Shown here: positions 6,248-36,967 of the stretch, one piece after another
Position numbering within the stretch: position 1 is the stretch's first letter
How the letters are laid out: the number at the start of each line of letters is the position of its first letter
Assembly (NCBI GenBank): GCA_051646645.1
Contig: JBOFDD010000141.1
Span: 1-38,433 of the forward strand
DNA from: Bacteroidales bacterium
GTDB taxonomy: Bacteria; Bacteroidota; Bacteroidia; Bacteroidales; UBA7332
DNA length: 38,433 nt
Direction of reading: 5' to 3'
Notes under the pieces: generated by a model
Told to the model about the DNA's origin: nothing
What the model saw: the letters and a program-made list of their open reading frames with translations, nothing else
The model's database searches: none
Made by a program: the position numbers and the translations under genes

Positions 6248-6265
6248 AATTTGTAGTATTTATAT

Positions 6266-6447
6266 AAGTAATATCAATAATTTACTGTAACATTTTAAAT
6301 ATGTATTTAATCTAAGATTTCGGATTCTTTTAGGTCTGTTTTTATTTTTCAAACCTTGATTTAGCCGGCTAAATCTGCATTTCGAAAAATAAAAACAGCC
6401 TCTAAAATTATCTCGAAAAATGTAACATTAAATTCTTTCTATCACTT
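6266..6447 (+). repeat. Copy A of a 182-bp PUL-boundary intergenic repeat (partner at 31703-31884)
   Basis: Ungapped alignment with 31703-31884 at a constant offset of 25437 bp, with about 20 mismatches in 182 positions by eye. It fills the whole susD-1 / GH109 intergenic gap. No ORF. Confidence 0.9.
6358..6375. promoter_or_regulatory. Perfect 18-bp palindrome GATTTAGCCGGCTAAATC inside repeat copy A (operator or hairpin candidate)
   Basis: The sequence equals its own reverse complement. Copy B (31795-31812) keeps both 8-nt half-sites and changes only the central dinucleotide (CG to CC). Confidence 0.4.
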
Positions 6448-6450
6448 CGA

Positions 6451-11200: not shown

Positions 11201-11601
11201 ACGTTTGCACCGATAACCGCTTCGCCGGTATTGTCTAAAATTGTCCCGCTGATTTTTTTAGCTTGTCCCGCTTTCTTTGAGCTGATAGAAATGTTATTTC
11301 CGTTTACTGCAAAAGTCAGATTTTTAGCTGACAGAATGCTTGACAATACATCTTTGACAGTGATATTCTCTTTGTTGAGAGAGATATCGTTCTGAGAAGG
11401 AAGAACAATATCACGATACGAGAAGCGATAATTTGTTTGTTTCTCAATCAGTGATAATACATTTTTAAGATTGGTTTTTTCAACATTCAAATTCACTTTT
11501 TGTGTTTGAGCAAATACCGAAACCGGATTTGTCAATAAAAAAAGGAATAAGAGTTTAGACAATACAATGCTAATTGTATTGAAACTTGATTTCAACTTCA
11601 T
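8237..11601 (-). pseudogene. SusC/RagA-family TonB-dependent transducer with N-terminal STN domain, split by a 1-nt frameshift near 9518-9522 (ORFs 9427-11601 and 8237-9424)
   Basis: Signal peptide, then an STN-like segment (NLKNVLSLIEKQTNYRFSY), a CarboxypepD_reg-like segment (ISGTILDNTGEAVIGANVVVDGTTDG), the plug (DEVVVVGYGTQKKVNLSGSV) and a barrel ending ..AFGVNVSF. After ..DGSSRFHE the frame is lost. A +1 shift restores DNRWGVFPSFSTAWRINQEDFLKNATWIDNLKVRASWGKLGN, which continues into the downstream ORF. Confidence 0.85.
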
Positions 11602-11688
11602 GTGATTAGTTTTTACAGGTTTGTCAATTGTTATGTTTTATGATTTTTGTTTTCGGTCAGAAGTCATCATTCCTTGTGTGTGTTTTCT

Positions 11689-12672
11689 TCAGTGATTAAA
11701 CTGTATGATTAAATTTTTGTTGTGTATTCTGAATTTAAAATCATAGTGGTACTGTAGAGCTTGAAGAATTTCGTCCAGACTTTCTCCTTCGAAGCTTCCG
11801 CTAAACCGATCACTGAGATATCCTGATTCAGAACATTGCAGCTGGTATCCATAATATTTGCAAAGCTCCTCTAAAACGTCTCTTAATGGAGCAGATTTAA
11901 ATATAAATTTACCACTTAGCCAGGCGATATCTTCTTTTGAATCCGTATTTTCAATGACTAATTTTCGTTCTTTGATATTGAAAATAGCCTTTTGATTGGG
12001 TTTTAACTGCGATTCCGGAAACGACTCGTTGTCGCTGTATAAAGCTACTGACCCTTCAACCAGAGATGTCTCAATGACCGGGCTATTGCTGTAAGCCGAA
12101 ACATTGAATGTAGTTCCGAGTACTTTAATATATAAGTCTGATGTCTCTACGATGAATGGCTTCTTTTTATCCTTGTTTACTTCAAAGTAACCCTCTCCGA
12201 CAAGTCTTAGTTTCCTTTTTGATTCTCCAAAATCGGCAGGATAACTCAATTCCGTTCCGGCATTAAGTTTGACGGTACTTCCATCAGGCAGCTTTACTGT
12301 GGCTCTTTCTCCTTCGGCAACAATAACCTGAAGATCCTTGCTCGCTGAATTATTCTGACTCTCACCCTGAATAATCGAATAGGCTTGATAACCTGCAAGA
12401 ATCACAAGACCGATCGCAGCAATGTTTCTGAGCTGACGGAACAGATGAACGACCTTACCTTTTTTCTTCTCTTTAATAATCCGGTCAATCTTACGGAATG
12501 ATTGTGCTCTTTTCTTTCCGGTATACTCATACTTTACCCACACGTCTTCCAGTATGGATTTAATAGCAGCATCCGGAAGAGTAGGAATAATATCGCATAA
12601 TTGCTTCCACTCATCCGCAGTGATAGTGCCATTGGCATATTTTTCAAATAATAGATATATCGGATCTTTCAT
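11689..12672 (-). CDS. FecR-family transmembrane anti-sigma factor
   Basis: Preferred start is MKDPIYLLFEKY.. at 12672; the track ORF extends to 12735. One TM helix (IAAIGLVILAGYQAYSII). FecR-like periplasmic domain (VKLPDGSTVKLNAGTELSY..GEGYFEV..PFIVET..LGTTFNV). Positioned between the ECF sigma gene and the STN-SusC gene. Confidence 0.85.
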   Translation of the reverse strand: MKDPIYLLFEKYANGTITADEWKQLCDIIPTLPDAAIKSILEDVWVKYEYTGKKRAQSFRKIDRIIKEKKKGKVVHLFRQLRNIAAIGLVILAGYQAYSIIQGESQNNSASKDLQVIVAEGERATVKLPDGSTVKLNAGTELSYPADFGESKRKLRLVGEGYFEVNKDKKKPFIVETSDLYIKVLGTTFNVSAYSNSPVIETSLVEGSVALYSDNESFPESQLKPNQKAIFNIKERKLVIENTDSKEDIAWLSGKFIFKSAPLRDVLEELCKYYGYQLQCSESGYLSDRFSGSFEGESLDEILQALQYHYDFKFRIHNKNLIIQFNH

Positions 12673-12743
12673 GTTGTTCCTTTTTCTGGAATTTATAAGA
12701 GTTACGTAATACTGATTTAAATTTACCAGAAGCAATTCGTTAT

Positions 12744-13319
12744 TTAACTTATATTATAGATTAAGAGAAGTAAATAAGCAGAACAGGATAACTCTTCTCT
12801 CAGTATCTGGAGAGAAGAATACAAATGGTTGTAGACAGAGCGTTCTGTGATATCAAGCTTATCGGATATTTCTTTTATAGAAATTCCAAGCTCCTTGTTT
12901 AATTCAAAAATTTCTCTCTGGCGGGGTGTTAATTTCATCTTTGCGCTTCTCAGATTCTCAACAAATTCATCATAGTCCAGCTCCTGGTCAACATTATTGT
13001 GGCTAATATTCATGCATTCAGAATGTTGCATGTAGTCTTCGAAAAGCGGGTTTTTCACCTTTCTTCTAATTTCATCAACTAATAAATTCTGGGCTATCCG
13101 GAAAAGATAAGCTTTAAATGATAATGCTTCATCAATTGTTGAATGATGAAGCCAGACTTTCAGAAAAGTCTCTTGCGTAATATCATCAGCAGTTTCCTCC
13201 GATCTGCTTAGCTTAAAGATAAAGCCCTTCAGATTTTTTGCATGAATTTCATACAGTGTCTGAAAAGCCTTATAATCCCCTTTCTTTAAGGCTAAAATCA
13301 ACTCAACTTCCTTTATCAT
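12744..13319 (-). CDS. ECF (sigma-70 family, group 4) RNA polymerase sigma factor
   Basis: Region 2 (DITQETFLKVW..KAYLFRIAQNLLVDEIRR) and region 4 HTH (LTPRQREIFELNKELGISIKEISDKLDITERSVYNHL). First gene of the sigma / anti-sigma / susC / susD arrangement. Confidence 0.9.
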   Translation of the reverse strand: MIKEVELILALKKGDYKAFQTLYEIHAKNLKGFIFKLSRSEETADDITQETFLKVWLHHSTIDEALSFKAYLFRIAQNLLVDEIRRKVKNPLFEDYMQHSECMNISHNNVDQELDYDEFVENLRSAKMKLTPRQREIFELNKELGISIKEISDKLDITERSVYNHLYSSLQILREELSCSAYLLLLIYNIS

Positions 13320-19752: not shown

Positions 19753-21339
19753 TTAGCTTGTTTTCATTTTATCTTCTATAAACAGGATAATATCAGCTCC
19801 TTCGCTGGTCTGCATCTTCTTACGAACAGAGGATCTGCACTTTTGAACGGAATAAATACTTTGTGCCCAAACGGCCGCAATCTCATCCGTTTTAAATCCG
19901 ACGCGCATCAGACAGCATAGTTGAAGTTCTTTCTCGCTCAGACTGGAATAGGAATCACAGAGGTATTTATAAAATCCATTATACAGCTTATCCACATCAT
20001 CGTAAAACCGGGGCCACTCAATTGTAAAGGGATTTTTATCGTCAATTGTCAGTACCTTGTTTAATTTTTCTACAAAGGTTTGATTGGTGTTTATTTGCTG
20101 GTTTTTCAACAATGCAATACGCTTAGTGATCTCAAGGTCGCGAATAATTGTATCTGCTATTGCTGAAGAAGTGCTTCTGTCTTTCTCAACAATTGATTCG
20201 AGAGCTTCGAGCTTTGATTCCAGTTCGAAAATATACAGCCGTTTTTTTCGTCTGTACCAGATGTAAAATGAACATATAAGCAGCGTTGCAAAGAAAAATA
20301 TACTGACAAAAAGAATTATTGAATGCTCAAGCCGGCTATATTTCGTTTTTAGCTTATCAATCTGATAAGTGGCATAAAGCTCATCAGGGGTTCCTTTGCT
20401 CAGGTGAGCCTGAATCTGATCTTTATAAATCAGAGTTCGCTTCAGCTGTATAAGAGCATTCTTTAAATCGCCCTCATGCATATGATATTCCGAATCGATC
20501 AGGTAAAAAGATTGTTGGATATTCAAATTTGATATTTGAGGCAAAAGCTCCCCTAGTTCAATACGGGTGGAGTTTAACTCCTCTTTTTGTCCTGTGTGAA
20601 TATAAATATACATTGCTATCAGTTTATCCATAGCTGCTTTCTCAGGTTCTTTACCCGAAGGAATAGAAGCCAGACAATTCAAAGCCTGATCCCATTTGTC
20701 TTCGTTTAAATAAGCAATAGCCATATTGCGCAATAAGACGGGATAACGCTCATCTGTCCGGTTTATATAAGTATAAAGATATTCAAACAACCTTAGAGAA
20801 CTTTCTGTATCAGATGTATACAGGTAGGTTAAGGCGGCTTGCAGCAAATAGGTTGTATCTGTTTCTCCGCAAGTCAGCTGTCTGAATAATTCCGATGAGA
20901 TTTTCAGATGTTCTGCCGAACTGATAAGGTCATATTCCATAAGATAGATAATTCCGATTTTACTGTGCAAATAAGCAAGCTGTCTTTTATCGCCTAACTT
21001 TTCTGATAACTCGAGCGCCTCACGAAAACAGATAAGGGAAGATTGGTATTCTGCGTATTGCTCATAAACATTTCCGAGAAGTATTAAGCTCTGAAGTTCA
21101 TTCTTCTTGTCGTTTACCTTATTAAAGTATATTACAGCATCGAGCAGCTTTGCCGAATCGCGTTTTAACGACTTACCCATTCGCAAGTCCGCTTCAGTAT
21201 TTCTGAGACAGATATTGAGTTCAGTATTTTCAGTAGCTTGCTTTATCTTTTCATTTGGAAGGCTACCAGCACTAAAGTTATTATCACAACTTTGCATCAG
21301 AATAGAAAAAAGGCACAGAAATAAATAGATGATTCTCAT
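19753..21339 (-). CDS. Membrane-spanning one-component regulator: exported TPR sensor domain, single TM helix, coiled coil, C-terminal LuxR/GerE-type HTH (copy 1)
   Basis: Lipoprotein-like signal MRIIYLFLCLFSILMQSC. TPR-like helical repeats (LLGNVYEQYAEYQSSLICFREALELSEKLGD..). TM helix IILFVSIFFFATLLICSFYIWY followed by RRKKR. HTH LSEKELQLCCLMRVGFKTDEIAAVWAQSIYSVQKCRSSVRKKM. Confidence 0.7.
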   Translation of the reverse strand: MRIIYLFLCLFSILMQSCDNNFSAGSLPNEKIKQATENTELNICLRNTEADLRMGKSLKRDSAKLLDAVIYFNKVNDKKNELQSLILLGNVYEQYAEYQSSLICFREALELSEKLGDKRQLAYLHSKIGIIYLMEYDLISSAEHLKISSELFRQLTCGETDTTYLLQAALTYLYTSDTESSLRLFEYLYTYINRTDERYPVLLRNMAIAYLNEDKWDQALNCLASIPSGKEPEKAAMDKLIAMYIYIHTGQKEELNSTRIELGELLPQISNLNIQQSFYLIDSEYHMHEGDLKNALIQLKRTLIYKDQIQAHLSKGTPDELYATYQIDKLKTKYSRLEHSIILFVSIFFFATLLICSFYIWYRRKKRLYIFELESKLEALESIVEKDRSTSSAIADTIIRDLEITKRIALLKNQQINTNQTFVEKLNKVLTIDDKNPFTIEWPRFYDDVDKLYNGFYKYLCDSYSSLSEKELQLCCLMRVGFKTDEIAAVWAQSIYSVQKCRSSVRKKMQTSEGADIILFIEDKMKTS

Positions 21340-24287: not shown

Positions 24288-25910
24288 ATGAATTACAGAA
24301 GTCTATTATCATTCATTTTACTGCTACTGATGCCGAATATTTGCGCTTCAGTCGAAAAACAAAGGGAGCTATTAGACAAAGCCGCAGATTTGCTTTACGA
24401 GAGTCCTTCACAATCGGCATTAATAACCGAGAAAGTTCTTAACCAACTGAGTGAGCATAATGAGGAGAATCACGACATTTATATTGAAGCATTAACCATA
24501 TTAGGACGCTCATATGATCTTCAGGGTGATTTTGATTTAGGAATCCAGGTATATCACGATGCTCTTGATCTTTGTAATCCATCTGACAAAAGACTGATTG
24601 CACTGATTAACCTGCGTATGTGCTCCTTGTATCGCTGCCTCAAAGATTTCAGTAAATCATACGAATTCATTGAAACAGCAACCTCTATGTATAAAGCTCT
24701 CGGCGACTCGAGTGGTATTGCGCAATGCTATAATTCACGGGGACTAATCCATACAACTCTTGAAGAAAACAAGGCTGCTGAGAAATATTTCCTGCAAGCT
24801 CTTGAGATTAACCGTAAGATCAATGATCAAAAATCTGTTGCAGCCAACCTGAATAACCTATGTCTTTATGAAGGAAACTCCGAAGAAAAAATAAAACTGC
24901 TTGAAGAGGCTATTTCAATTAACCGGGCTCGAAATGCAAACTGGCCTTTAGGTGAGAATTATAATAACATGGGAATTCAGTATTTCTATGCAGGAAACTA
25001 TAGAATGGCCTTAACAATGCTTGATAAGGCAATGACTTACGCTGAAAAATTAAATGCGAAAGAGCTCATGTGCGACAATTACAGATACAAATCATGGGTT
25101 TATGACAGTTTGCACCGGTATGACAAAGCCTATTCCTGCTTTCTGAAACTCTACGAAATGGAGCAACAGATTCAGTCTGAAAAGAATCTGAGAAATATTG
25201 AGCGTTCTATGTCTCAAAAAGCTTTATTGAAAAAAGCAGGACAAATTCAGCTAATGGATCAGATGCATAAAAACCAGATTCTTAAAAACTCATTGATATT
25301 TAGTGTATCCTTACTTATTCTTGGCATTTTCTCATTATCCATTTTCTGGAAAAGAGACAAAGACCGCAAACGCTCTGAGCTGTACAGAACCAAACTTGAA
25401 CTCGAACAGAGTAACTCGGAGTTATTAAAACTGAAACTCCGCCAGGAAGAAATTGAAAAACAAAAAATGGAAACTAAGCTCTCAACGAATAAAAGAGATC
25501 TTACAAACTTCGCATACTACATTCGGAGCCGGAATGAAATGCTGTCAAAAATCAAAGATCAGATAAAAGAGGCATACAGAATGGACCATTCTCTCATTCA
25601 CTCTCACCTCCGCCGGATTAGTGCTTTTATTAGTCAGTACGAAACATCTGACGATAATAAGCTTCTTGTTGTTACAGAAATAGAACAATATAACGAAGAT
25701 TTCATTAGCAGACTGGACCAAAAACATCCGGATCTGACTAAATCAGAAAAGCAACTCTCGGCTTTTTTACGTATTGAATTAAGTACAAAAGAGATTTGTT
25801 TAATGACCGGCTCAAATATTAAAGCAATAAATATGGCGCGTTACAGACTCCGGAAACGCTTAAATCTTAATCCGGAAGATTCAATTTCAGAATATTTACA
25901 AAACATCTGA
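24288..25910 (+). CDS. Membrane-spanning one-component regulator: exported TPR sensor domain, single TM helix, coiled coil, C-terminal LuxR/GerE-type HTH (copy 2, heads PUL-2)
   Basis: Preferred start is MNYRSLLSFILLLLMPNICAS at 24288; the track ORF starts at 24183. Multiple TPRs (ALTILGRSYDLQGDFDLGIQVYHDALDL, AQCYNSRGLIHTTLEENKAAEKYFLQALEI, NYNNMGIQYFYAGNYRMALTMLDKAMTYAE). TM helix SLIFSVSLLILGIFSLSIFW followed by KRDKDRKR. HTH LTKSEKQLSAFLRIELSTKEICLMTGSNIKAINMARYRLRKRL. Confidence 0.75.
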   Translation: MNYRSLLSFILLLLMPNICASVEKQRELLDKAADLLYESPSQSALITEKVLNQLSEHNEENHDIYIEALTILGRSYDLQGDFDLGIQVYHDALDLCNPSDKRLIALINLRMCSLYRCLKDFSKSYEFIETATSMYKALGDSSGIAQCYNSRGLIHTTLEENKAAEKYFLQALEINRKINDQKSVAANLNNLCLYEGNSEEKIKLLEEAISINRARNANWPLGENYNNMGIQYFYAGNYRMALTMLDKAMTYAEKLNAKELMCDNYRYKSWVYDSLHRYDKAYSCFLKLYEMEQQIQSEKNLRNIERSMSQKALLKKAGQIQLMDQMHKNQILKNSLIFSVSLLILGIFSLSIFWKRDKDRKRSELYRTKLELEQSNSELLKLKLRQEEIEKQKMETKLSTNKRDLTNFAYYIRSRNEMLSKIKDQIKEAYRMDHSLIHSHLRRISAFISQYETSDDNKLLVVTEIEQYNEDFISRLDQKHPDLTKSEKQLSAFLRIELSTKEICLMTGSNIKAINMARYRLRKRLNLNPEDSISEYLQNI

Positions 25911-25965
25911 TTGTAGTGGTATATCACAAACGTAATTATTGATTATCAATGTGTTATACGGAATA

Positions 25966-26029
25966 TTGTAGGTGATATTATTGATAAAAATAACGAATTG
26001 TAGGTCTTGCGTAGGTGATAATATATTTT
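25966..26029 (+). promoter_or_regulatory. Direct TTGTAGGTGATA-type repeats plus a near-consensus -7 box upstream of susC-2
   Basis: TTGTAGGTGATA at 25966-25977, TTGTAGGT at 25998-26005, GTAGGTGATA at 26011-26020, and a looser TTGTAGTGGTATA at 25911. TATATTTT at 26022-26029 has one mismatch to TAnnTTTG. Confidence 0.35.
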
Positions 26030-26095
26030 ACAGAAACAAAAGTCACCCCATATATTAGCCGACGAAAAAAATTATCAACCTATAATTTTCAATCC

Positions 26096-29000
26096 ATGAA
26101 GTACCTAACAAGTCCAAGAGTTGCAAGTCCTCACTGGAGGATTATTCTACTTACTCTGTTTCTATTACCATTTAGTTTGTACGCACAAACTTATCTTCTG
26201 AAAGGAAGTGTTTTTGACAATGCTAACGAACCGTTAGTTGGGGCAAATATCCAGATCAAAGGAACACAAACAGGCACATTGGCTGATGTCGATGGTGGAT
26301 TCCAGTTAGAAGTTCTGCCAAATCAGACTCTGATTGTTTCATTTGTGGGATATAAGATGCAGGAAATTCCGGTAAACGGAAGAAAATCAATTAAAGTTGT
26401 ATTAACTGAAGATTCACAGCTTCTGAATGAAACAGTTGTTGTCGGATACGGAACTATGAAAAAAAGCGACTTAACAGGAGCTATTTCTTCCGTAGATGTT
26501 AATGATCTTTCGAAAAGAGCTACTACCAATCCGGCTGAAGCACTGCAAGGTAAGATTGCAGGTGTGAACGTTCAGAAATCAGGTGGAAATGCAGGATCGG
26601 GCGTTCGCGTAAAAATCCGCGGGGTGAAATCTTTCGGCAGCAATGAACCGCTTTACATTATTGATGGCTTTCCGGGAGACATCAACAGTGTGAATCCAAG
26701 CGACATTGAATCGATGGAGGTATTGAAAGATGGTGCCGCAGCAGCTATCTATGGTTCTGTTGCTGCAAATGGTGTTATTATCGTTACTACAAAAAGCGGT
26801 AAAAAAGGGGACATCAAGGTCGATTTCAACACCTACCTTTCATTCTCAAGTGTAGACAAAAAACTGGATATGCTTGATGCTGACGGTTATGTAAAGGTTC
26901 ATGAGCAAATGTACAAGAACTACTACAATGATGAAGGTAAACCTGCTACTTACCCTGAATACGTTACAAATCCGGGTAATGTAAATACCGACTGGCAAAA
27001 AGAAGCTTTCCGCAATTCATTCTCTCAGAATTACATGGTCGGAGTTCGTGGTGGCGGAGATGCTGCACGTTTCTCTATGTCTTATAACCATGCTGATGAT
27101 GAAGGTACAATTATAGGGAATGACTACAAACTTGATAATGCAAGAATGAAAGTTGACTTCTCGAAATATATCTTCGATGTAGATGCAAATATCGGAATCA
27201 AAGCTACAAGCAACAACCAGCCTAAATTCCAGTTGAAAGAGATGTATATGATCTCTCCTTTAGTTCCTGTTTATGACGAAAACAATAAATATGGTTTTGG
27301 TCTGACTAATTTCAAGGAAATTCCTAATAACCGTAACGTTATTGCTGATGATCATTTCAGAACAAGAAGCAACAAAACAAAAGAATATAATGCCAATATC
27401 TCTGTAAACGTTAACATCACTGATTGGTTAAAATTCAAAACAGCCTATTCATTCCGTGGGGCAAACAACTTGAGCACATCACATTATCCGGATTATATCG
27501 CAGACGTTAAAGCACCGAACGAATATCCTTTCTACTCAGAATATGCATCTTACTGGCAGTCTCAGGTGTTTGATAACACTTTGAGCTTTGATAAACAAAT
27601 CAAAAAGAACTCGATCAATGCAATGGTGGGTGCTTCAATCACAAGAGAAATATCAACATGGCATGAAGTTGGCGCAGAAGGTAAAAAAACAGAATACTCT
27701 GTTATTGATGGCAAACTTGTTACGACTGTCAGACCTGGTGGATTCCTGGATCCTAACTTCCAGACAATCGGAGCCGGTACAGGCGGTACTTACTACGGAA
27801 GCGGTTCGAAATATGAATACAACCGTGCTTCTTTCTTTGGTCGCGTAAACTATTCTTATGATAGCAGATACCTGTTCCAGGCAACACTTCGTTATGACGG
27901 TTCTTCAAAATTCGGTTCTGAAAGCCGTTGGGGATTCTTCCCTTCTGTAGCTTTGGGATGGAGAATCAACCAGGAATCATTCTTCCCTGAAACAGACGTT
28001 ATCAGTAACTTGAAACTAAGAGCAAGCTGGGGGCGTCTTGGTAATGAAGGAGCACTTGGCTACTATGACTTCTTAGCTCTGATAAATACATATAATAATA
28101 TGTTTATGGGGTATGTACAAGGTTCCGGCGAAAATCCATGGCCGGGAAGTATTGCTCCGGGACTTGAAAACCGTGATCTTAAATGGGAAACGACTGACAC
28201 TAAAAACATCGGTCTTGACTATGGTTTCCTTGACAACCGCCTTTATGGTAGCTTGAACTACTACTACAACAAAACAAATGATTTGCTTATCACAAAGGTT
28301 CTTCCTCCGTCAGCAGGTTTGTACGATCCTATCCTTAACGTAGGTAAGATCAAAAACAGCGGTGTTGAAATCGAAGTAAACTGGAATGACAAAATTAGAG
28401 ACTTTCAGTATAATGTTGGCTTCAACCTTACTACTATCAATAATAAAGTATTAGAACTGGCATCTCCTGATCAGGTTCTTTACGGCGAAGGTTTGAAATA
28501 CGGATCTGAGCACTTCCCTACTCAGACTCGCGTTGGTAAAACAATTGGCGGATTCTATCTGTATAAAACAGATGGTATATTCCAGAGTATGGACGAAGTG
28601 AATGCTCACGTAAATAAAGATGGTGATTTAATTCAGCCAAATGCTAAACCGGGCGATATCCGCTTTGCTGATATCAACGGTGACGGTGAGATCAATGAAG
28701 ATGATAAAGAATACTGTGGTGCCGGTATACCTAAGGTAGAGGCAAACCTTTCTTTAGGAGCAAGCTACAAAGGTTTTGATTTCTCAGTTGTATTTGGTAG
28801 TGCATGGGGACATAAAATCTACAATGGTAACAGATATTTCTATGAGGGAATGGCTTCCGGCTCTAACTTCCTGAAATCATCTCTTAATGCATGGACTCCG
28901 GAAAACACAAACACGGATATTCCTCGTGCTGTTCTTCAGGATAAAAATGGTAATGCTCGTGAATCGGATCGTTTCCTTGAAAACGGGAACTTCCTTCGTA

Positions 29001-29224
29001 TGAGACAACTTCAGTTCGGATATACACTTCCATCTCAGCTTACCAAAAAAGCATGGATTGAAAGTCTGAGAGTATATGTAAGTGGTGAAAACTTATGGAC
29101 ATGGAGCAACTACAGCGGTATAGATCCGGAGTTCTCTCGCGCAAGTGTACTTAACTCTGGTATTGACAATCTGATTTATCCATTCAACCGCACTTATGTT
29201 GTTGGTTTGCAAGTAGTATTTTAA
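26096..29224 (+). CDS. SusC/RagA-family TonB-dependent outer-membrane transporter (PUL-2, no STN domain)
   Basis: Preferred start is MKYLTSPRVASPHWRIILLTLFLLPFSLYA/Q at 26096. CarboxypepD_reg-like LKGSVFDNANEPLVGANIQIKGT, plug ETVVVGYGTMKKSDLTGAISSV, LRASWGRLGNEG, and barrel end ..YVVGLQVVF. Confidence 0.9.
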   Translation: MKYLTSPRVASPHWRIILLTLFLLPFSLYAQTYLLKGSVFDNANEPLVGANIQIKGTQTGTLADVDGGFQLEVLPNQTLIVSFVGYKMQEIPVNGRKSIKVVLTEDSQLLNETVVVGYGTMKKSDLTGAISSVDVNDLSKRATTNPAEALQGKIAGVNVQKSGGNAGSGVRVKIRGVKSFGSNEPLYIIDGFPGDINSVNPSDIESMEVLKDGAAAAIYGSVAANGVIIVTTKSGKKGDIKVDFNTYLSFSSVDKKLDMLDADGYVKVHEQMYKNYYNDEGKPATYPEYVTNPGNVNTDWQKEAFRNSFSQNYMVGVRGGGDAARFSMSYNHADDEGTIIGNDYKLDNARMKVDFSKYIFDVDANIGIKATSNNQPKFQLKEMYMISPLVPVYDENNKYGFGLTNFKEIPNNRNVIADDHFRTRSNKTKEYNANISVNVNITDWLKFKTAYSFRGANNLSTSHYPDYIADVKAPNEYPFYSEYASYWQSQVFDNTLSFDKQIKKNSINAMVGASITREISTWHEVGAEGKKTEYSVIDGKLVTTVRPGGFLDPNFQTIGAGTGGTYYGSGSKYEYNRASFFGRVNYSYDSRYLFQATLRYDGSSKFGSESRWGFFPSVALGWRINQESFFPETDVISNLKLRASWGRLGNEGALGYYDFLALINTYNNMFMGYVQGSGENPWPGSIAPGLENRDLKWETTDTKNIGLDYGFLDNRLYGSLNYYYNKTNDLLITKVLPPSAGLYDPILNVGKIKNSGVEIEVNWNDKIRDFQYNVGFNLTTINNKVLELASPDQVLYGEGLKYGSEHFPTQTRVGKTIGGFYLYKTDGIFQSMDEVNAHVNKDGDLIQPNAKPGDIRFADINGDGEINEDDKEYCGAGIPKVEANLSLGASYKGFDFSVVFGSAWGHKIYNGNRYFYEGMASGSNFLKSSLNAWTPENTNTDIPRAVLQDKNGNARESDRFLENGNFLRMRQLQFGYTLPSQLTKKAWIESLRVYVSGENLWTWSNYSGIDPEFSRASVLNSGIDNLIYPFNRTYVVGLQVVF

Positions 29225-29231
29225 CCTATAA

Positions 29232-30767
29232 ATGAAGAAACCTATGAAAAAGATATTTATATCCATCGCCACTGTCTTGTCTCTAATGACGATGAGTTCA
29301 TGCGAAGATTTTTTAACTGTAGAGTCACCCGATCAGTTAACCTCTTCCTCTTTCTGGCGAAATAAAGCCGATGCTGAGGCTGGATTAGCTGCTGCGTATT
29401 CAAAAATGGAATCTTCAACAGACGTTTGGGGATTTGCTGAGATTCACTGGCCTGTTGAGGCATACCGGGAAGATATTATCAATATGGGGAATGATGCATT
29501 AAACTACCAGAACTGGACAGAACTCGCATTATTTACATATGGCAACGGGAACTCGCAGTTCTCGCTTTACTGGCAGGATAATTATGCTGGTATAAGCTAC
29601 TGTAACCAGGTTATCGAAAAAGTATCGGAAATTCCTGATGTTGCAATCACGCCGGAGGATCGTGCCAAAATCATCAATGAAGCACACTTCTTAAGAGCTT
29701 ATTATCACACAAAACTACTAATGAACTGGCACGATGTGGTTATTCGTGACAAATACATAACTTCTCAGGCTGATTTGAGTAAAGCACTTTCATCAAGAAC
29801 TGAATGCTGGGATTTTGTACTAAACGATCTGGCTATTGCTACTGCACTTCCGGCAGAGCAAGCATCTGAAAATCTGGGTAGAGCAACAAAAGGTGCTGCT
29901 TACTCCTATATGGGATGGATTTATCTGACCCGCGCTTATGAAGAAAGCGGCCGAAAAGATGAGTTTTTGAACAAAGCCGTAGATGCTTTTAAAAATGTAA
30001 CAGGTTATGAGTTGGAGAAAAACTTCCTGAGCATGTTTAACGGCACAAACAAAAACAGCAAAGAGTCAATCTTTGAACTTCAGTTTACTATGTCAAACGC
30101 GAATGGAGCAAACTACCGTACTGCTCTTCACAGATGGATTGGCGTTAGCGAACTTTGGGGATGGGATGAGATTCTTCCGAGTGAAAGCCTGATGACTGAA
30201 TATATGAAAGAAGGTAAGATCGCAACAACAGGTAGATATGATTCCAGACTTTATGCTAGTATTTTCTTCCAGGATGAATACTTCAACGATGGTTCAGGTA
30301 AAGTCTATGGTTATAACTATGACGACTGGTTCCAGAACTCAGAGGGCGTTGCTTATAACAGACCTGCTTTCCGCAAATTTATGCCTGCGACTTATGCAGA
30401 CCTTGAAATGTCGAGAACAGCTGTAAATATTCCTTTAATGCGCTACTCTAACGTTCTTTTGATGTACGCTGAAGCATTAAATGAGCTTGGCAGAACCAGC
30501 GAGGCTATTCCTTTTATTAATAAAGTAAGAGAAAGAGCTGATATGCCAGCAATGACAGGAACGTCACAGGCAGACGTAAGAGCTCAGATTGAGCATGAAC
30601 GTATCCTTGAGTTCCCGCTGGAAAACTACCGTTTCTATGATTTGAGAAGATGGGGAAAAGCGAAAGAAGCTCTTGCAGCTGTCGGACGTAAAACTTTTGA
30701 TCCTCAGAAAAATAATTTTTATCCGGTTCCCTTAACCGAGATAAATTCTAACGATCTGGTTAATTAA
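29232..30767 (+). CDS. SusD/RagB-family nutrient-binding outer-membrane lipoprotein (PUL-2)
   Basis: Lipoprotein signal ..VLSLMTMSSC. AHFLRAYYHTKLLMNW, RYSNVLLMYAEALNELG, HERILEFPLENYRFYDLRRWG and FYPVPLTEINSN. Starts 7 nt after susC-2. Confidence 0.9.
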   Translation: MKKPMKKIFISIATVLSLMTMSSCEDFLTVESPDQLTSSSFWRNKADAEAGLAAAYSKMESSTDVWGFAEIHWPVEAYREDIINMGNDALNYQNWTELALFTYGNGNSQFSLYWQDNYAGISYCNQVIEKVSEIPDVAITPEDRAKIINEAHFLRAYYHTKLLMNWHDVVIRDKYITSQADLSKALSSRTECWDFVLNDLAIATALPAEQASENLGRATKGAAYSYMGWIYLTRAYEESGRKDEFLNKAVDAFKNVTGYELEKNFLSMFNGTNKNSKESIFELQFTMSNANGANYRTALHRWIGVSELWGWDEILPSESLMTEYMKEGKIATTGRYDSRLYASIFFQDEYFNDGSGKVYGYNYDDWFQNSEGVAYNRPAFRKFMPATYADLEMSRTAVNIPLMRYSNVLLMYAEALNELGRTSEAIPFINKVRERADMPAMTGTSQADVRAQIEHERILEFPLENYRFYDLRRWGKAKEALAAVGRKTFDPQKNNFYPVPLTEINSNDLVN

Positions 30768-30779
30768 TCTATTTTTTAT

Positions 30780-30805
30780 CGGCGGAGCGTGTGAATGCTC
30801 CGCCG
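30780..30805 (+). terminator. GC-rich hairpin after susD-2 (terminator-like, no clear U-tract)
   Basis: CGGCGGAGC (30780-30788) pairs perfectly with GCTCCGCCG (30797-30805), with an 8-nt loop. Confidence 0.45.
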
Positions 30806-30824
30806 AAATTAATATCAGTAATTT

Positions 30825-31109
30825 ATGTTCATTGTCGTAGCACTGTTAGTTTCAGGTATTTTCCTTGGCTTTATTCTGCGGGATAAAGGAATTGAAAAGG
30901 TCAACCGGTTTATTACTCCTTTAATCTGGTTACTTCTTTTTCTGTTAGGAATTACTGTTGGTAAAGATCCGAAAATAATGCAGGGATTAACCACAATAGG
31001 TATTGATGCACTAATCATTACTTCTTTTGCTGTATTGGGAAGCGTAATTGCGGCATGGGGACTTTTACAATTGTTGAACCGCGCTAAATCTAAAAAAAAT
31101 GAAGGGTAG
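30825..31109 (+). CDS. LysO (YbjE) family lysine exporter, N-terminal segment encoded as a separate 94-aa ORF
   Basis: Three hydrophobic helices. Collinear with the first ~90 residues of E. coli YbjE/LysO (LIWLLLFLLGITVG vs MVYLILFFMGISLA). Confidence 0.7.
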   Translation: MFIVVALLVSGIFLGFILRDKGIEKVNRFITPLIWLLLFLLGITVGKDPKIMQGLTTIGIDALIITSFAVLGSVIAAWGLLQLLNRAKSKKNEG

Positions 31110-31701
31110 TATCATTATTGTTTCCTTCTTCATTCTTGGGGTACTATGTGGAAACTACGAACTTTTACCCGGCTGGATATTAGAATCAGATTATAGCCTC
31201 TATGCACTCTGGTTGTTAATGTTCTGTGTCGGAATAAGTGTAGGGTCTGATAAAAAAGCTTTACATAGTATCCGGAATATTGAACGGGGATATATCTGGC
31301 TTCCTGTATTCACAATCATTGGCACATTAGCAGGTTCTGCCATATCTGTATTCTTCATCAACGGATATTCGGTATCTGATTGTCTGGCTGTAGGATCGGG
31401 ATTTGGTTATTATTCCCTCTCCAGCATTTTTATTACTCAGTACAAAGGTCCTGAACTTGGAACAATCGCACTGATTTCAAACATCTGCAGAGAAATTATC
31501 ACCTTGCTGTTCACGCCTGTTCTGGTATATATTTTTGGAAAACTTGCTCCCATTTCGTGCGGAGGAGCAACCACAATGGACACAACTTTACCTGTTATTA
31601 CGAAATACAGCGGAAAAGAGATGGCAGTCATTGCTATTTTTCATGGAATAACCGTAGACTTCACCGTTCCTTTTCTTGTAACTTTCTTCGCTACCTTATA
31701 G
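31099..31701 (+). CDS. lysO: LysO (YbjE) family lysine exporter, main DUF340-type segment
   Basis: GSGFGYYSLSSIFIT, ISNICREIITLLFTP, CGGATTMDTTLPVI and IFHGITVDFTVPFLV match ASGFGWYSLSGILLT, FNDLARELIAIMLIP, CGATSMDFTLPVL and IVHGFILSLLVP of E. coli LysO. Overlaps the upstream ORF by 11 nt at an A8 run. Confidence 0.8.
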   Translation: MKGSIIIVSFFILGVLCGNYELLPGWILESDYSLYALWLLMFCVGISVGSDKKALHSIRNIERGYIWLPVFTIIGTLAGSAISVFFINGYSVSDCLAVGSGFGYYSLSSIFITQYKGPELGTIALISNICREIITLLFTPVLVYIFGKLAPISCGGATTMDTTLPVITKYSGKEMAVIAIFHGITVDFTVPFLVTFFATL

Positions 31702-31702
31702 C

Positions 31703-31884
31703 AAGTAATATCAATAATTTATTGTGACATTTTAAATAGATATAAAACCTAAGATTTCGGATTTTTTTAGGTCTGTTTTCCTTTTTCTCTCCTTGATTTA
31801 GCCCGCTAAATCTGCGTTTCGAAAAATAAAAACATCCTCTAAAATTATCTCGAAAAATGCAACACTAAATTCTTTCTATTACTT
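31703..31884 (+). repeat. Copy B of the 182-bp PUL-boundary intergenic repeat (partner at 6266-6447)
   Basis: Same orientation and length as copy A, about 89% identical and ungapped. Starts 1 nt after the lysO stop and ends 26 nt before the GH2 ATG. Carries the GATTTAGCCCGCTAAATC near-palindrome at 31795-31812. Confidence 0.9.
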
Positions 31885-31889
31885 AGTAA

Positions 31890-35036
<3,147 letters not shown>

Positions 35037-35062
35037 ACCCTTTTAATTTTTAATTTCGTACA

Positions 35063-36967
35063 ATGAAAAATACACTCTCAGTTTTATTAGCCCTTTTCCT
35101 GGTCGCTTGCACTCAAGCGACCCAGGAAAAACCATTATTGCAAGATCAGTTTTCTCAGATTCTCGATATAACTTACTCTCCCGATACTCTTACCGGAGGA
35201 AGAGGGTGGTTTACTGATCAGGGGTCATGGATGGGATTTACTCTTCCTGAAAAAGGAAGTAAAACGATTGGCTTCAGCGGACCTTATGATCTTGAATCAA
35301 GAAGATGGATTTCTCAATCTTTGCTACAGGCTTCTTTTATATTACCAGAACAAAAATCTGTTGATCTGGCGATAGACTCAACAAACTATATCCCCGGAGC
35401 CATACGCCTTACTGCCGGTAATGGATCGGATTTACGCATGAATCAGGAGATGATGTTTATTGACAAGAATCATGCAATTGTATCATTCTCGACAAATAAA
35501 GATCAGACATGGGTCTTGCATGGCAAGCTATTATCTGAACTACAAACACTTCATAAAGAGAAAGAAAACTTGCTCATTTCTCTTTCAAACGGAGAGATTC
35601 TGGCTCTTTCTTTTGAAGGTGATGTGAAAATAGAGACAAACGGAAAGGAATATACGGCTACTTCGGATAAGAAAAAACAAACTTACGCCGTGATTTCCTA
35701 TTTCAATCATAAAAAAGAGTTAGTTGCCGGACTACAAAAAGCTGCTCAGATCATTGCCTCTCCGGAGAGTTATATAAAGGATCAGCGGAAAAAGTGGAAT
35801 GACTATCTCGAAGCGGTTATTCGCCCCGAACTTCCGGAACAATACAATAGAATTGCAGCTAAATCAGTTGTGACACTTATGTCAAACTGGAGAAGCGCGA
35901 AAGGTGGATTATTACATGATGGCGTCGTACCATCGCATGCTGTTGGATATTTTGTTGGATTTTGGGCATGGGACTCCTGGAAACATGCTTATGCACTGGC
36001 TAAAATTGCTCCTTCACTGGCAAAAGATCAGATACGTACCATGTTTGATTATCAAACACCGGACGGAATGGTCATTGACTGTATCTATACAAACAGCGAA
36101 GAGAACAATCCGAGAGACAGTAAGCCTCCTTTGGCTGCATGGGCTGTCAACCGGATCTATGATGAAACAAAGGATACGGCTTTTGTAAAAGAGATTTACC
36201 CTCAACTGGTTAAATATCACAACTGGTGGTACGAAAACAGAGATCATAACGGAAATGAGATTTGTGAATTCGGGTCGGTTGATGGAACAGAAGAGGCTGC
36301 CAAATGGGAAAGCGGAATGGATAATGCGATCCGTTTTGATGAAGCTACAATGGTAAAAAACAACGATCAGGCATGGAGCTTCAATCAGGAATCAGTAGAC
36401 CTGAATGCTTTTCTGATCTTCGAAAAGCAACTGCTTCGTAAACTTGCTCCCGTTGCAGGGATGAATCTGGAGATTAAGGGTTCGCCGGACGAGAATGTGA
36501 ACTACTTCTTCGACGAAAAAGATAAATTCTTTTATGACAAAGGACTTAAAGGTGAGTTCATCCGCGAGCAAGGCTCTGAATCGTATATCCCTTTGTGGGC
36601 AGGAATCGCTTCTCAGGCTCAGGCTGACAATGCTATGAATGTGTTCAAAGACACAAGCAAGTTTTCAACCTATATACCATTCCCCACAGTTGCTGCCGAC
36701 AATCCAAAGTTTATGCCTAAAGGCTACTGGCGCGGTCCGATCTGGCTGGATCAGGTATACTTCGGCATTAATGGTATACGCAACTACGGATATAAAACGG
36801 AAGCTGATACTTATACCGAACAGGTATTTGATCGTCTTGATGGATTACAGGGCACTGCTCCTATTCATGAAAATTATGGTACACATACAGGAGAGAGACT
36901 AAAAGCGCCTCATTTCAGCTGGTCTGCAGCTCACCTGCTTATGTTGTTCGAAGAATATAAAAACTAA
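35063..36967 (+). CDS. GH63-family (YgjK-like) alpha-glucosidase, lipoprotein
   Basis: Lipoprotein signal LALFLVAC. FWAWDSWKHAYALA, KPPLAAWAVNRIY, YPQLVKYHNWWYENRDHNGN, WESGMDNAIRFD, YWRGPIWLDQVYFGINGIRNYGY, PIHENY and APHFSWSAAHLLML are collinear with E. coli YgjK motifs. Confidence 0.8.
   Translation: MKNTLSVLLALFLVACTQATQEKPLLQDQFSQILDITYSPDTLTGGRGWFTDQGSWMGFTLPEKGSKTIGFSGPYDLESRRWISQSLLQASFILPEQKSVDLAIDSTNYIPGAIRLTAGNGSDLRMNQEMMFIDKNHAIVSFSTNKDQTWVLHGKLLSELQTLHKEKENLLISLSNGEILALSFEGDVKIETNGKEYTATSDKKKQTYAVISYFNHKKELVAGLQKAAQIIASPESYIKDQRKKWNDYLEAVIRPELPEQYNRIAAKSVVTLMSNWRSAKGGLLHDGVVPSHAVGYFVGFWAWDSWKHAYALAKIAPSLAKDQIRTMFDYQTPDGMVIDCIYTNSEENNPRDSKPPLAAWAVNRIYDETKDTAFVKEIYPQLVKYHNWWYENRDHNGNEICEFGSVDGTEEAAKWESGMDNAIRFDEATMVKNNDQAWSFNQESVDLNAFLIFEKQLLRKLAPVAGMNLEIKGSPDENVNYFFDEKDKFFYDKGLKGEFIREQGSESYIPLWAGIASQAQADNAMNVFKDTSKFSTYIPFPTVAADNPKFMPKGYWRGPIWLDQVYFGINGIRNYGYKTEADTYTEQVFDRLDGLQGTAPIHENYGTHTGERLKAPHFSWSAAHLLMLFEEYKN

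Follow-up and report, generated by a model that had tools for sequence, protein, structure and literature searches.

The gene at 24288-25910 encodes P0001, which is likely a SusR-type membrane-spanning one-component transcription factor, within a subfamily that the DUF6377 profile does not recognize. The window, that is, the whole stretch of DNA analysed, comprises 38,433 nucleotides of a Bacteroidales contig. According to profile comparisons and structural models, remote homology indicates a divergent SusR-type regulator and not a new class. The preliminary description had stated that no known class of PUL regulator has this architecture; this claim of a distinct class is not supported, because SusR has a like architecture (PMC2757170, PMC3878776; structural model) as well as profile-profile homology by hhalign. 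P0001 very probably switches on the adjoining sugar-uptake genes.

The P0001 reading frame starts with ATG, although a longer alternative frame opens at TTG 24183 (ORF analysis). We prefer ATG 24288 because orthologs align from residues 1-28 and because this start gives an N-terminal signal sequence. Hydropathy analysis locates the N-terminal hydrophobic stretch at residues 4-24; the N-terminus is a cleavable signal or an anchor, and by analogy with SusR it is probably cleaved by SPase I. Within residues 48-300, Pfam detected TPR_12 (E 2.5e-18) together with TPR_1, TPR_2, TPR_8 and TPR_10, and the AF2 model (pLDDT 83.9) displays 14 helices within residues 40-295. The top Foldseek structures for this domain are LGN/Pins, Rap, KLC and consensus-TPR proteins (E 3e-8), whereas a PDB sequence search with the whole protein yielded generic TPR matches only. 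In the ortholog alignment, the Asn-rich motifs NLNNLCLYEG and WxLGENYNNMGxQYFY of the TPR region are invariant columns. The features of the locus are compiled in Table 1.

Table 1. Features of the P0001 locus and of the architecture-mate P0002, with positions in the window.
Feature	Positions	Strand	Description	Evidence
P0001 gene	24288..25910	+	TPR-TM-HTH one-component regulator, 540 aa	ORF, domains, model, orthologs
Signal peptide	24288..24350	+	aa 1 to ~21, MNYRSLLSFILLLLMPNICAS	hydropathy
Periplasmic TPR solenoid	24405..25172	+	aa 40-295, 14 helices / seven TPR pairs	Pfam, AF2, Foldseek
Single TM helix	25287..25349	+	aa 334-354, SLIFSVSLLILGIFSLSIFW plus flank	Kyte-Doolittle 2.38
Basic stop-transfer cluster and long charged helix	25350..25574	+	KRDKDRKR; aa 355-429, cytoplasmic	sequence, model
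LuxR/GerE-type four-helix HTH	25740..25904	+	aa 485-539	family profiles, AF2 model
Putative operator box 1	25911..25921	+	TTGTAGTGGTA; TGTAG 25912-25916; abuts P0001 stop codon	
Putative operator box 2	25966..25977	+	TTGTAGGTGATA; TGTAG 25967-25971; 55 bp after box 1	
Putative operator box 3	25998..26007	+	TTGTAGGTCT; TGTAG 25999-26003; 32 bp after box 2	
Degenerate box 4	26009..26020	+	GCGTAGGTGATA; CGTAG 26010-26014; 11 bp after box 3	
Probable Bacteroides -7 promoter box	26051..26058	+	TATATTAG; consensus TAnnTTTG	
susC-2	26096..29224	+	presumed first target; TonB-dependent transporter without STN domain	
susD-2	29232..30767	+		domain search
P0002	19753..21339	-	528 aa; lipoprotein-like signal, TPR, TM, like HTH output module	

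The TM helix is the sole strong internal hydrophobic segment of P0001 and is directly followed by WKRDKDRKRSE. Hydropathy and the AF2 model, with KRDKDRKR as a positive-inside flank, predict the sensor outside and the HTH inside. In the model, residues 298-429 form one unbroken helix of ~130 residues that passes through the membrane segment. A coiled coil had previously been assigned behind the TM helix; the continuous helix is indeed modelled, whereas the coiled-coil state of residues 355-429 and their dimerization are presumed from it. Profile searches with Pfam and NCBIfam found no HisKA, HATPase, receiver, sigma-70 or FecR domain. P0001 hence falls outside the hybrid two-component systems (no HisKA, HATPase_c, receiver or AraC-type HTH in the profile searches) and outside the ECF sigma/anti-sigma pairs (no sigma-70 r2/r4 or FecR, and a susC-2 devoid of STN). 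In agreement with the preliminary description, P0001 carries a predicted signal sequence and periplasm-facing TPR region (Pfam, 14-helix model, hydropathy), followed by one TM helix with a basic cluster, and it lacks kinase, receiver, sigma and anti-sigma domains. A TPR sensor outside, an HTH inside and the absence of a phosphorelay support the proposed role as a membrane-tethered one-component regulator.

The P0001 model closes with four short helices (residues 485-539), and the recognition helix begins at K512-A513. Pfam GerE (PF00196) does not match P0001 itself, but it matches 9 of 20 orthologous C-termini (best E 3.8e-6). The best PDB matches of the family profile are LuxR-type regulators, namely 3clo (E 4.7e-4), EL222, EsrB and PdeL; together with the four-helix model, these data support the suggested GerE/LuxR-type HTH at the family level. 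The C-terminal 90 residues are the best-conserved part of the family (62% mean column identity), with an invariant RYRLRK motif. By profile search, this output module is closest to that of BguR-type regulators: a Bacteroides cellulosilyticus protein composed of Reg_prop, Y_Y_Y, TM and GerE was matched at E 5e-27, as opposed to E 0.002-0.03 for the SusR C-terminus with a narrow profile. The module is found in 66 of 121 sampled Bacteroidota genomes, compared with 9 of the same 121 for DUF6377, and the proteins bearing it are about 410-460, 510-660 and 900-1050 residues long.

The stop codon of P0001 (25908-25910) and the ATG of susC-2 (26096) are separated by 185 nt, and both genes lie on the plus strand. 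The susC-2 product consists of CarbopepD_reg_2, Plug and barrel domains (profile search); a domain search detected neither an STN domain nor any other signalling extension. The gene thus lies upstream of an STN-less susC, as had been described. The sigma-70/FecR genes and the STN-type set in the window belong to its other PUL (9427-13319).

Orthologs of P0001 were found in 200 species-representative genomes by a contig scan, and synteny was examined in 80. The ortholog precedes susC-susD in 72 of these 80 loci, 61 times directly adjacent and 11 times with susC 1-4 kb downstream, which bears out the proposed linkage to susC/D in other genomes. In Bacteroidales, susC-susD is usually followed by a lysO pair, GH2 and GH63, and the locus is present in Bacteroides, Phocaeicola vulgatus, Parabacteroides, Tannerella forsythia, Alistipes, Odoribacter and Muribaculaceae. 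As far as titles and abstract openings tell, a literature search on the GH2/GH63 PUL apparently returned nothing specific. We reject a general PUL linkage of the wider TPR-TM-HTH architecture: in a phylum-wide sample, only 1 of 20 non-orthologous relatives precedes a SusC-like transporter. A survey of this architecture across Bacteroidota supports proximity to susC for the P0001 orthologs, but not for their more distant relatives. Elsewhere in the phylum, many output-module proteins adjoin non-PUL genes such as T9SS cargo.

The gap between P0001 and susC-2 harbours a putative operator array. Of 58 distinct intergenic regions compared, 57 carry TGTAG(A/G) boxes, three or four per region and in direct orientation, at fixed positions with spacings of 55-56, 32-33 and 11 bp; the fourth box at +11 is present in 22 of the 58. 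As multiples of ~11 bp, these spacings place the boxes on the same side of the DNA helix. Of the 58 regions, 46 contain the 8-mer TGTAGATA (shuffle maximum 13), and the array is found once in the 2.6-Mb genome, with 0.06 occurrences expected by chance. Where the first residue of the recognition helix (residue 513) is Ala, 12 of 18 boxes read TGTAGG; where it is Thr, the 159 boxes include 12 with TGTAGG and 121 with TGTAGA. The Ala-type regulators form two separate clades, and the covariation rests on these two only. Just downstream of the array, the -7-like box aligns with a TTAnTTTGC block conserved in the orthologs. As TTTG likewise serves as the -33 promoter element of Bacteroides, part of the conservation seen in the boxes could be due to promoter elements instead of an operator. 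We link P0001 to the susC/D operon because of the conserved synteny, the conserved operator array and the covarying recognition-helix residue.

SusR has been described as a protein with an SPase I signal, a periplasmic N-terminal sensor, one internal TM helix and a cytoplasmic C-terminal HTH (PMC2757170, PMC3878776). It is predicted to bind direct repeats (PMC3878776), and its response is elicited by maltose and malto-oligosaccharides (PMC2757170, PMC11633381). We identified the SusR reference from its neighbourhood, which contains GH97 and SusE/F, together with the JGI annotation 'regulatory protein susR'; the B. thetaiotaomicron and B. ovatus proteins are 89% identical, in agreement with the published figure (PMC11633381). 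Like P0001, the B. thetaiotaomicron SusR model comprises a 14-helix periplasmic repeat, a TM helix and four C-terminal helices, and its top Foldseek matches in the PDB are LGN/Pins TPR structures common to P0001 (E 1.4e-5). To our knowledge, direct ligand binding by SusR has not been demonstrated, and we know of no characterization of DNA binding by SusR itself.

Full-length hhalign of the P0001 family against SusR resulted in 96.3% (E 2e-9) over 485 collinear columns, with 0.6% for the reversed control. This score was reached after diverse DUF6377 proteins from a phylum-wide search had been added; the first full-length comparison relied on an alignment of nine SusR sequences (mean column identity 71%, most rows 65-89% identical to the first) and gave 26.6%. 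Part of the full-length score stems from TPR repeats, signal peptide and TM segment, and these are weak evidence of specific common descent. The cytoplasmic 130 residues alone, free of TPR and TM, scored 92% (E 6.8e-7; reversed control 0.3%) with a 50-sequence superfamily alignment and 6% with a narrow ortholog alignment. BLASTP of P0001 against SusR was not significant (E 0.72). At E up to 1, neither P0001 nor P0002 was matched by the DUF6377 profile (PF19904), which extends from the final periplasmic repeat across the TM helix into the cytoplasmic region; true SusR proteins reach 283-315 bits with it, and two other relatives in the same genome scored below threshold only.

P0001 and SusR (BT3705) share a length of about 530-550 residues, an SPase I-type signal, a periplasmic TPR-like solenoid of ~14 helices, one internal TM helix, a cytoplasmic helical linker and a C-terminal HTH, and both lack a phosphorelay; the gene stands at the head of a susC/D locus, as for SusR-like regulators. 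P0001 thus combines the predicted topology, the all-alpha periplasmic TPR-like sensor of ~280 residues, the profile-level ancestry and the susC/susD adjacency of that type. The two proteins nevertheless differ: identity in the hhalign alignment is about 16%, the TPR repeats of P0001 pass Pfam thresholds whereas those of SusR are sub-threshold, and the P0001 HTH is nearer to GerE. Moreover, the P0001 locus contains GH2, GH63 and LysO instead of GH13/GH97 starch genes, and its boxes are spaced by 55/32/11 bp compared with the 67 or 77 bp proposed for SusR. A literature search found no paper on TPR-bearing SusR-like regulators or on PUL regulators joining LuxR and TPR.

BguR-type beta-glucan regulators (bioRxiv 10.64898/2026.01.10.698779) and their Bacteroides relatives resemble P0001 in their signal peptide, single TM helix, helical linker and lack of a phosphorelay, and their genes are likewise located directly upstream of susC. 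The C-terminal 90-residue output modules are clearly homologous (E 1e-18 to 1e-27), and P0001 shows the output features of this type, including the GerE-like HTH. The BguR-type sensor, in contrast, is a tandem beta-propeller plus Y_Y_Y (proteins of about 900-1050 residues), whereas that of P0001 is a TPR solenoid, and P0001 as a whole is ~400 residues shorter; Pfam found no Reg_prop or Y_Y_Y match in P0001. The BguR preprint itself treats SusR and BguR as architecturally comparable only. FimS, the TPR sensor histidine kinase of Porphyromonas (NCBIfam NF053520), has a periplasmic TPR array followed by a TM segment as in P0001, whose residues 79-371 match the model at E 3e-12 but with 45 bits against a 600-bit cut-off; the similarity may be generic to TPRs. 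P0001, unlike FimS, has neither HisKA nor HATPase, and its output is a direct HTH. ToxR, CadC and TcpP of Proteobacteria resemble P0001 as single-pass proteins that couple a periplasmic sensor to DNA binding without phosphotransfer, and they bind direct repeats near the promoter while tethered to the membrane. ToxR has a cytoplasmic N-terminus with an OmpR-type winged helix and a periplasmic C-terminus; P0001 is of opposite polarity, and its HTH is LuxR-type. No sequence relationship between P0001 and ToxR, CadC or TcpP was seen.

In the literature found, BT3442 figures only as a TPR protein heading the MACPF cluster of B. thetaiotaomicron (PMC2954219). The BT3442 family (NF053779) has a TPR-TM-HTH layout like that of P0001, and the family model aligns over residues 48-537. 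P0001 (23.3 bits) and P0002 (41.4 bits) remain far below the 940-bit cut-off and so are outside the family, which is a separate orthologous group not linked to PULs. A BT3442-like protein of the same genome carries the output module (E 1e-12). P0002 has its TM segment at residues 336-363 and its HTH at the C-terminus. Described earlier as a paralog of identical architecture, it does have a like layout; BLASTP against P0001 was not significant (E 0.36), and the C-terminal module (E 1e-9 against the P0001-family profile) is the sole demonstrably homologous part. The location of P0002 on the minus strand is missing from the preliminary description.

We propose that the ligand of the periplasmic TPR domain would be a degradation product, oligosaccharide or glycopeptide, that enters through SusC/D. 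The signal could pass along the continuous helix 298-429, probably because a dimer or oligomer shifts in register or packing. With the phased boxes then bound by membrane-tethered HTH domains, transcription from the susC promoter might be switched on, and P0001 would be an activator that acts locally on a single operon. The ligand, the binding to DNA and activation as opposed to repression are all inferred.

The usual partners of LGN/Rap-type TPR folds are peptides or proteins and not free sugars. P0001 might instead sense a peptide, a glycopeptide or a periplasmic protein partner, for example a periplasmic SusC segment or a binding protein, by protein-protein signalling as in trans-envelope signalling, with its target unchanged. 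Consistent with this, the best fold matches are the peptide-binding TPRs LGN/Pins, Rap and NprR, an invariant Asn recurs every ~37-40 residues (N149, N189/190, N226/227, N264) in a spacing that resembles the Asn ladder of peptide-binding TPR grooves, and the conserved operon includes a LysO-type amino-acid exporter pair. However, SusR, a sensor of like kind, responds to maltose and malto-oligosaccharides (PMC2757170, PMC11633381), susC-2 lacks STN and other signalling extensions, and no partner gene is kept beside the regulator; we regard this alternative as possible but doubtful. We consider it very unlikely that P0001, with a vestigial helix bundle at its C-terminus, serves as a TPR scaffold or envelope protein instead of a transcription factor, and that the TGTAG boxes are promoter or UP-like elements or are bound by a different factor. 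P0001 itself is below the GerE threshold, TTTG doubles as the -33 element and relatives elsewhere in the phylum adjoin unrelated genes. Yet the C-terminal 90 residues are the most conserved, with RYRLRK invariant, and are homologous to BguR-type domains that do score with GerE. In addition, a set of three or four boxes on one strand, spaced by fixed multiples of 11 bp, is not a single promoter, and the array is unique in the genome and covaries with a residue of the recognition helix.

Alternatively, P0001 might represent a distinct, non-SusR class of PUL sensor, in which a FimS-like TPR sensor was fused to a BguR-like LuxR output and the likeness to SusR arose by convergence. The missing DUF6377 match, the insignificant BLASTP comparison with SusR, the far closer similarity of the module to BguR-type regulators, the FimS match of the TPR and TM region, the wider distribution of the module than of DUF6377 and the presence of a canonical SusR in the same genome are in line with such an origin. 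We nonetheless consider it improbable: SusR matches P0001 in domain order, size, helix count and PDB folds, the full-length hhalign is collinear, and the cytoplasmic module scores highly on its own against a negligible reversed control. Even if the likeness were convergent, membrane-spanning one-component PUL activators are already known from SusR and BguR. For the divergent SusR-type regulator favoured here, we lean towards a wider model in which SusR, BguR-type, BT3442-type and P0001-family proteins would branch from a single superfamily of membrane-spanning one-component regulators that extends across the phylum. These would share a homologous output of ~90-130 residues (helix plus LuxR-type HTH) with swapped periplasmic sensors; DUF6377 would be a narrow offshoot, the TPR groove of the P0001 subfamily, with its Asn ladder, may read a glycopeptide and not a plain glycan, and TGTAG(A/G) together with residue 513 would provide a first recognition code.

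The type of regulator is already known, whereas the P0001 subfamily itself is unstudied as far as the literature searched shows. PGAP labels P0001-type proteins only as 'tetratricopeptide repeat protein' and DUF6377 misses them; consequently, PUL surveys for HTCS, ECF and DUF6377 would score a widespread PUL as regulator-less. The predicted operator is unusually clean, which makes DNA binding by a SusR-type regulator directly testable, and homology between the SusR and BguR output modules would join two regulator types.

The regulator gene upstream of susC-2 encodes a stop-free 540-aa protein (P0001) whose hydropathy profile displays a signal-like N-terminal segment (residues 4–24) and a single strong internal hydrophobic helix (residues 334–354, Kyte-Doolittle 2.38). 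As this helix is followed by the basic stretch WKRDKDRKRSE, the positive-inside rule predicts the N-terminal two thirds to be outside and the C-terminal third inside. The only Pfam matches are TPR families at residues 48–300 (TPR_12, E 2.5e-18), and HisKA, HATPase, receiver, sigma and FecR domains were absent from Pfam and profile searches. An AlphaFold2 model, suggested earlier as a check and calculated from 23 orthologs (mean pLDDT 83.9), visualizes 14 TPR-like helices (residues 40–295), one unbroken helix enclosing the TM segment (298–429), two more helices and a terminal four-helix bundle (485–539), with LGN/Pins, Rap, kinesin light chain and consensus-TPR proteins as top PDB fold matches (E 3e-8). 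Hydropathy, Pfam and model agree with the predicted topology of the preliminary description (signal, TPR part outside, one TM helix, basic flank, C-terminal HTH inside), which had also rightly denied the protein a kinase, receiver, sigma or anti-sigma domain; its sequence observation is confirmed.

The regulator stop codon (25908–25910) and the in-frame susC-2 ATG (26096) are 185 nt apart, precisely the distance first stated. The mechanical susC ORF starts at GTG 26015, within the operator region; most orthologs align with this long frame only from residue 56–57, and ATG 26096 is the likely start. A domain search of susC-2 yielded CarbopepD_reg_2, Plug and barrel but no STN domain, as claimed before; susD, a LysO-type pair, GH2 and a GH63-like hydrolase follow in this order. 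The other PUL in the window (9427–13319, minus strand) is under classical ECF sigma control and thus provides an internal contrast to the STN-less susC-2.

We scanned one genome per GTDB species and kept the best 80 of 200 relatives (38–79% identity), which include Bacteroides, Phocaeicola vulgatus ATCC 8482, Parabacteroides, Tannerella forsythia ATCC 43037, Odoribacter, Alistipes, Paludibacter and Muribaculaceae. According to tblastn with the neighbouring proteins of the window, susC lies directly downstream on the same strand in 61 of the 80 loci and 1–4 kb downstream in 11 more, while five have no downstream susC and three end too early to judge. Linkage to susC in other genomes, for which a survey had been proposed, is hence found in 72 of the 80 orthologous loci; among these, susD is present in 69, GH2 in 63, GH63 in 53 and LysO in 46. 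Both the PUL and the position of its regulator are conserved. Order and strand of the locus at 24288–36967, from the regulator through susC, susD, the LysO pair and GH2 to GH63, are kept across Bacteroidales, including the P. vulgatus (L015) and T. forsythia (L040) strains. In most loci labelled Parabacteroides or Tannerella, no LysO pair separates susD from GH2, and most have no LysO match at all; in T. forsythia, LysO is located after GH2.

P0001 itself does not reach the Pfam GerE threshold, but the proposed GerE/LuxR-type HTH is supported at the family level: GerE is matched by 9 of 20 non-redundant orthologous C-termini (best E 3.8e-6), and their profile retrieves LuxR-type regulators first from the PDB (3clo, E 4.7e-4, then EL222, EsrB and PdeL). 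The C-terminal motif LT-x2-E-x-L-x3-LR-x2-LSTKEI-x9-INM-x-RYRLRK-x-L fits the LuxR pattern. The 90-aa C-terminal profile also matches the C-termini of 950–1017-aa B. cellulosilyticus proteins (E 1e-18 to 1e-23), one of which combines Reg_prop, Y_Y_Y, a TM helix and GerE and is thus of the BguR type; BguR was recently reported to be a one-component regulator for laminarin that spans the membrane (bioRxiv 10.64898/2026.01.10.698779). BguR-type proteins and P0001 therefore have homologous output modules, whereas the Reg_prop and Y_Y_Y part belongs to the former. Of the 121 Bacteroidota genomes sampled, 66 encode the module (29 of 75 genera), in frames of about 410–460, 510–660 and 900–1050 aa; DUF6377, which marks the SusR family, was detected in 9 genomes from 4 genera. 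Five tandem genes of about 405–505 aa in one relative's locus (L105, G080:C38:78400–88700) bear the same HTH module and no predicted TM helix; family f16 has similar TM-less genes in many of its genomes. The module family may thus include a soluble branch that has multiplied as tandem arrays in small-genome Bacteroidota.

The preliminary description had further held that no known class of PUL regulator has this architecture. For SusR, however, an SPase I signal and a single internal TM helix were reported, with the N-terminal part in the periplasm and the C-terminal HTH in the cytoplasm (PMC2757170); another paper describes it as a membrane protein that combines a sensor in the periplasm with a DNA-binding domain in the cytoplasm (PMC3878776). 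As SusR candidate in P. vulgatus we identified a 531-aa ORF adjoining a GH97 gene upstream of the SusE/F genes, 75% identical to B. thetaiotaomicron proteins named 'regulatory protein susR' by JGI; the B. ovatus counterpart is 89% identical to B. thetaiotaomicron SusR, the figure published for BoSusR and BtSusR (PMC11633381). In SusR proteins, a signal sequence is present and the TM helix spans about residues 326–353. For B. thetaiotaomicron SusR, the AlphaFold2 model is of low quality in the cytoplasmic region but reaches pLDDT 70–91 at residues 50–300; it comprises 14 periplasmic helices, the TM helix, cytoplasmic helices and four terminal helices, and its top PDB matches are the same LGN/Pins TPR entries as for P0001 (E 1.4e-5). 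Thus SusR carries the very layout claimed to be missing from known classes, and in the predicted models signal, 14-helix TPR-like part, TM helix and four terminal helices are identical in architecture. The two differ in that SusR matches DUF6377 (299–315 bits) and TPR models only below threshold, whereas P0001 has TPR matches above threshold and no DUF6377 match in the Pfam search.

BLASTP revealed no significant similarity between P0001 and SusR (E 0.72), and a first hhalign comparison of the orthologs with nine rather similar SusR sequences (mean column identity 71%) yielded 26.6%. With ten SusR-family proteins, including diverse DUF6377 members from the 121-genome sample, hhalign returned 96.3% (E 2e-9) over 485 collinear columns, TM on TM and HTH on HTH (reversed-sequence control 0.6%). 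To avoid the score inflation that TPR repeats and hydrophobic helices may cause, we restricted the comparison to the final 130 residues of the cytoplasmic part: a 50-sequence module alignment from across the phylum matched the SusR C-termini at 92% (E 6.8e-7, 92 columns; reversed control 0.3%). Remote homology to SusR is therefore probable, and the notion of a distinct class is not supported.

P0002, the 'paralog of identical architecture', is encoded on the minus strand, a point to be added to the preliminary description. It does have the same architecture, and its C-terminal module is homologous (E 1e-9 with the P0001 family profile), but BLASTP similarity to P0001 is not significant (E 0.36). 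It has a lipoprotein-like signal (LMQSC), only the output module in common with P0001 and a weak NCBIfam BT3442_fam match (E 7.7e-11), and its gene precedes two small outer-membrane beta-barrel genes rather than a PUL. The genome encodes several further architecture-mates; one relative, split over two overlapping frames (G000:C149:5348–6729, matches 5348–5905 and 5881–6729), could reflect an assembly error or a pseudogene with a frameshift. A distantly related Bacteroidota genome (L089, G098:C2:20600–33000) has two TPR-TM-HTH regulator genes (533 and 559 aa) adjoining in tandem on the same strand. Among 20 sampled non-orthologous relatives of 500–660 aa, a SusC-like transporter follows in only one; several others adjoin T9SS cargo genes, a TPR gene then beta-oxidation genes, or other unrelated genes. 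The wider architecture is hence not PUL-specific, and the PUL link is limited to the orthologous group of P0001.

Features of the two PULs, P0002 and the predicted operator in the window
Feature	Position	Strand	Remark
STN-bearing SusC	9427–11601	-	other PUL
FecR anti-sigma	11689–12735	-	other PUL
ECF sigma	12744–13319	-	other PUL
P0002 (528 aa)	19753–21339	-	
P0001 (540 aa)	24288–25910	+	
TGTAG boxes	25912, 25967, 25999	+	conserved array
CGTAG variant box	26010	+	fourth box position

In the regulator–susC intergenic regions of 58 distinct loci, the 8-mer TGTAGATA occurs in 46, compared with a shuffled-control maximum of 13. Three or four same-strand TGTAG(A/G/T) boxes (consensus TTTGTAGATA) are present in 57 of the 58, at about 187, 132, 100 and, in some regions, 88 nt upstream of the susC ATG; as their spacings (55–56, 32–33 and 11 bp) are all multiples of about 11 bp, the boxes lie on one helix face. 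About 50 nt downstream of box 3, orthologs conserve a TTAnTTTGC block fitting the Bacteroides -7 consensus TAnnTTTG. Its counterpart here is TATATTAG at 26051–26058, which predicts transcription to start about 30 nt before the susC ATG; the conserved block does not align with TATATTTT at 26022–26029, previously proposed as the -7 element. Within the entire 2.6-Mb genome, there is a single match to TGTAG-N49-52-TGTAG-N26-29-TGTAG (0.06 expected by chance). Furthermore, the base that follows TGTAG co-varies with residue A513, with which the predicted recognition helix begins: with Ala this is G in 12 of 18 boxes, with Thr G in 12 and A in 121 of 159. Because the regulators with Ala fall into two separate clades when the tree is midpoint-rooted, and so represent two events only, this covariation is suggestive rather than proof. 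Taken together, array, single occurrence and covariation mark P0001 as the protein most likely to bind the boxes, and as a local regulator of a single target.

We propose that the periplasmic TPR groove of P0001 binds a product imported by SusC/D, that the long helix, in a dimer or higher oligomer, would relay the signal, and that the tethered HTH domains would settle on the phased boxes and switch on the susC promoter, as SusR and BguR activate their own target promoters. A glycopeptide or protein signal instead of a plain glycan is a serious alternative as ligand, given that the orthologs have invariant asparagines at periodic intervals which, like the related folds, recall peptide-binding TPR grooves, and that the operon contains the LysO pair.

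A regulatory role of P0001 is strongly supported by these comparisons, and our literature search retrieved no paper describing its subfamily. The same genome encodes, directly upstream of GH97 on a 6-kb contig (L086, G000:C9:4018–5673, minus strand), a canonical SusR (DUF6377, 283 bits). The organism thus carries SusR proper besides a divergent type. P0001 belongs to the SusR kind as a divergent, uncharacterised member whose output resembles that of BguR.
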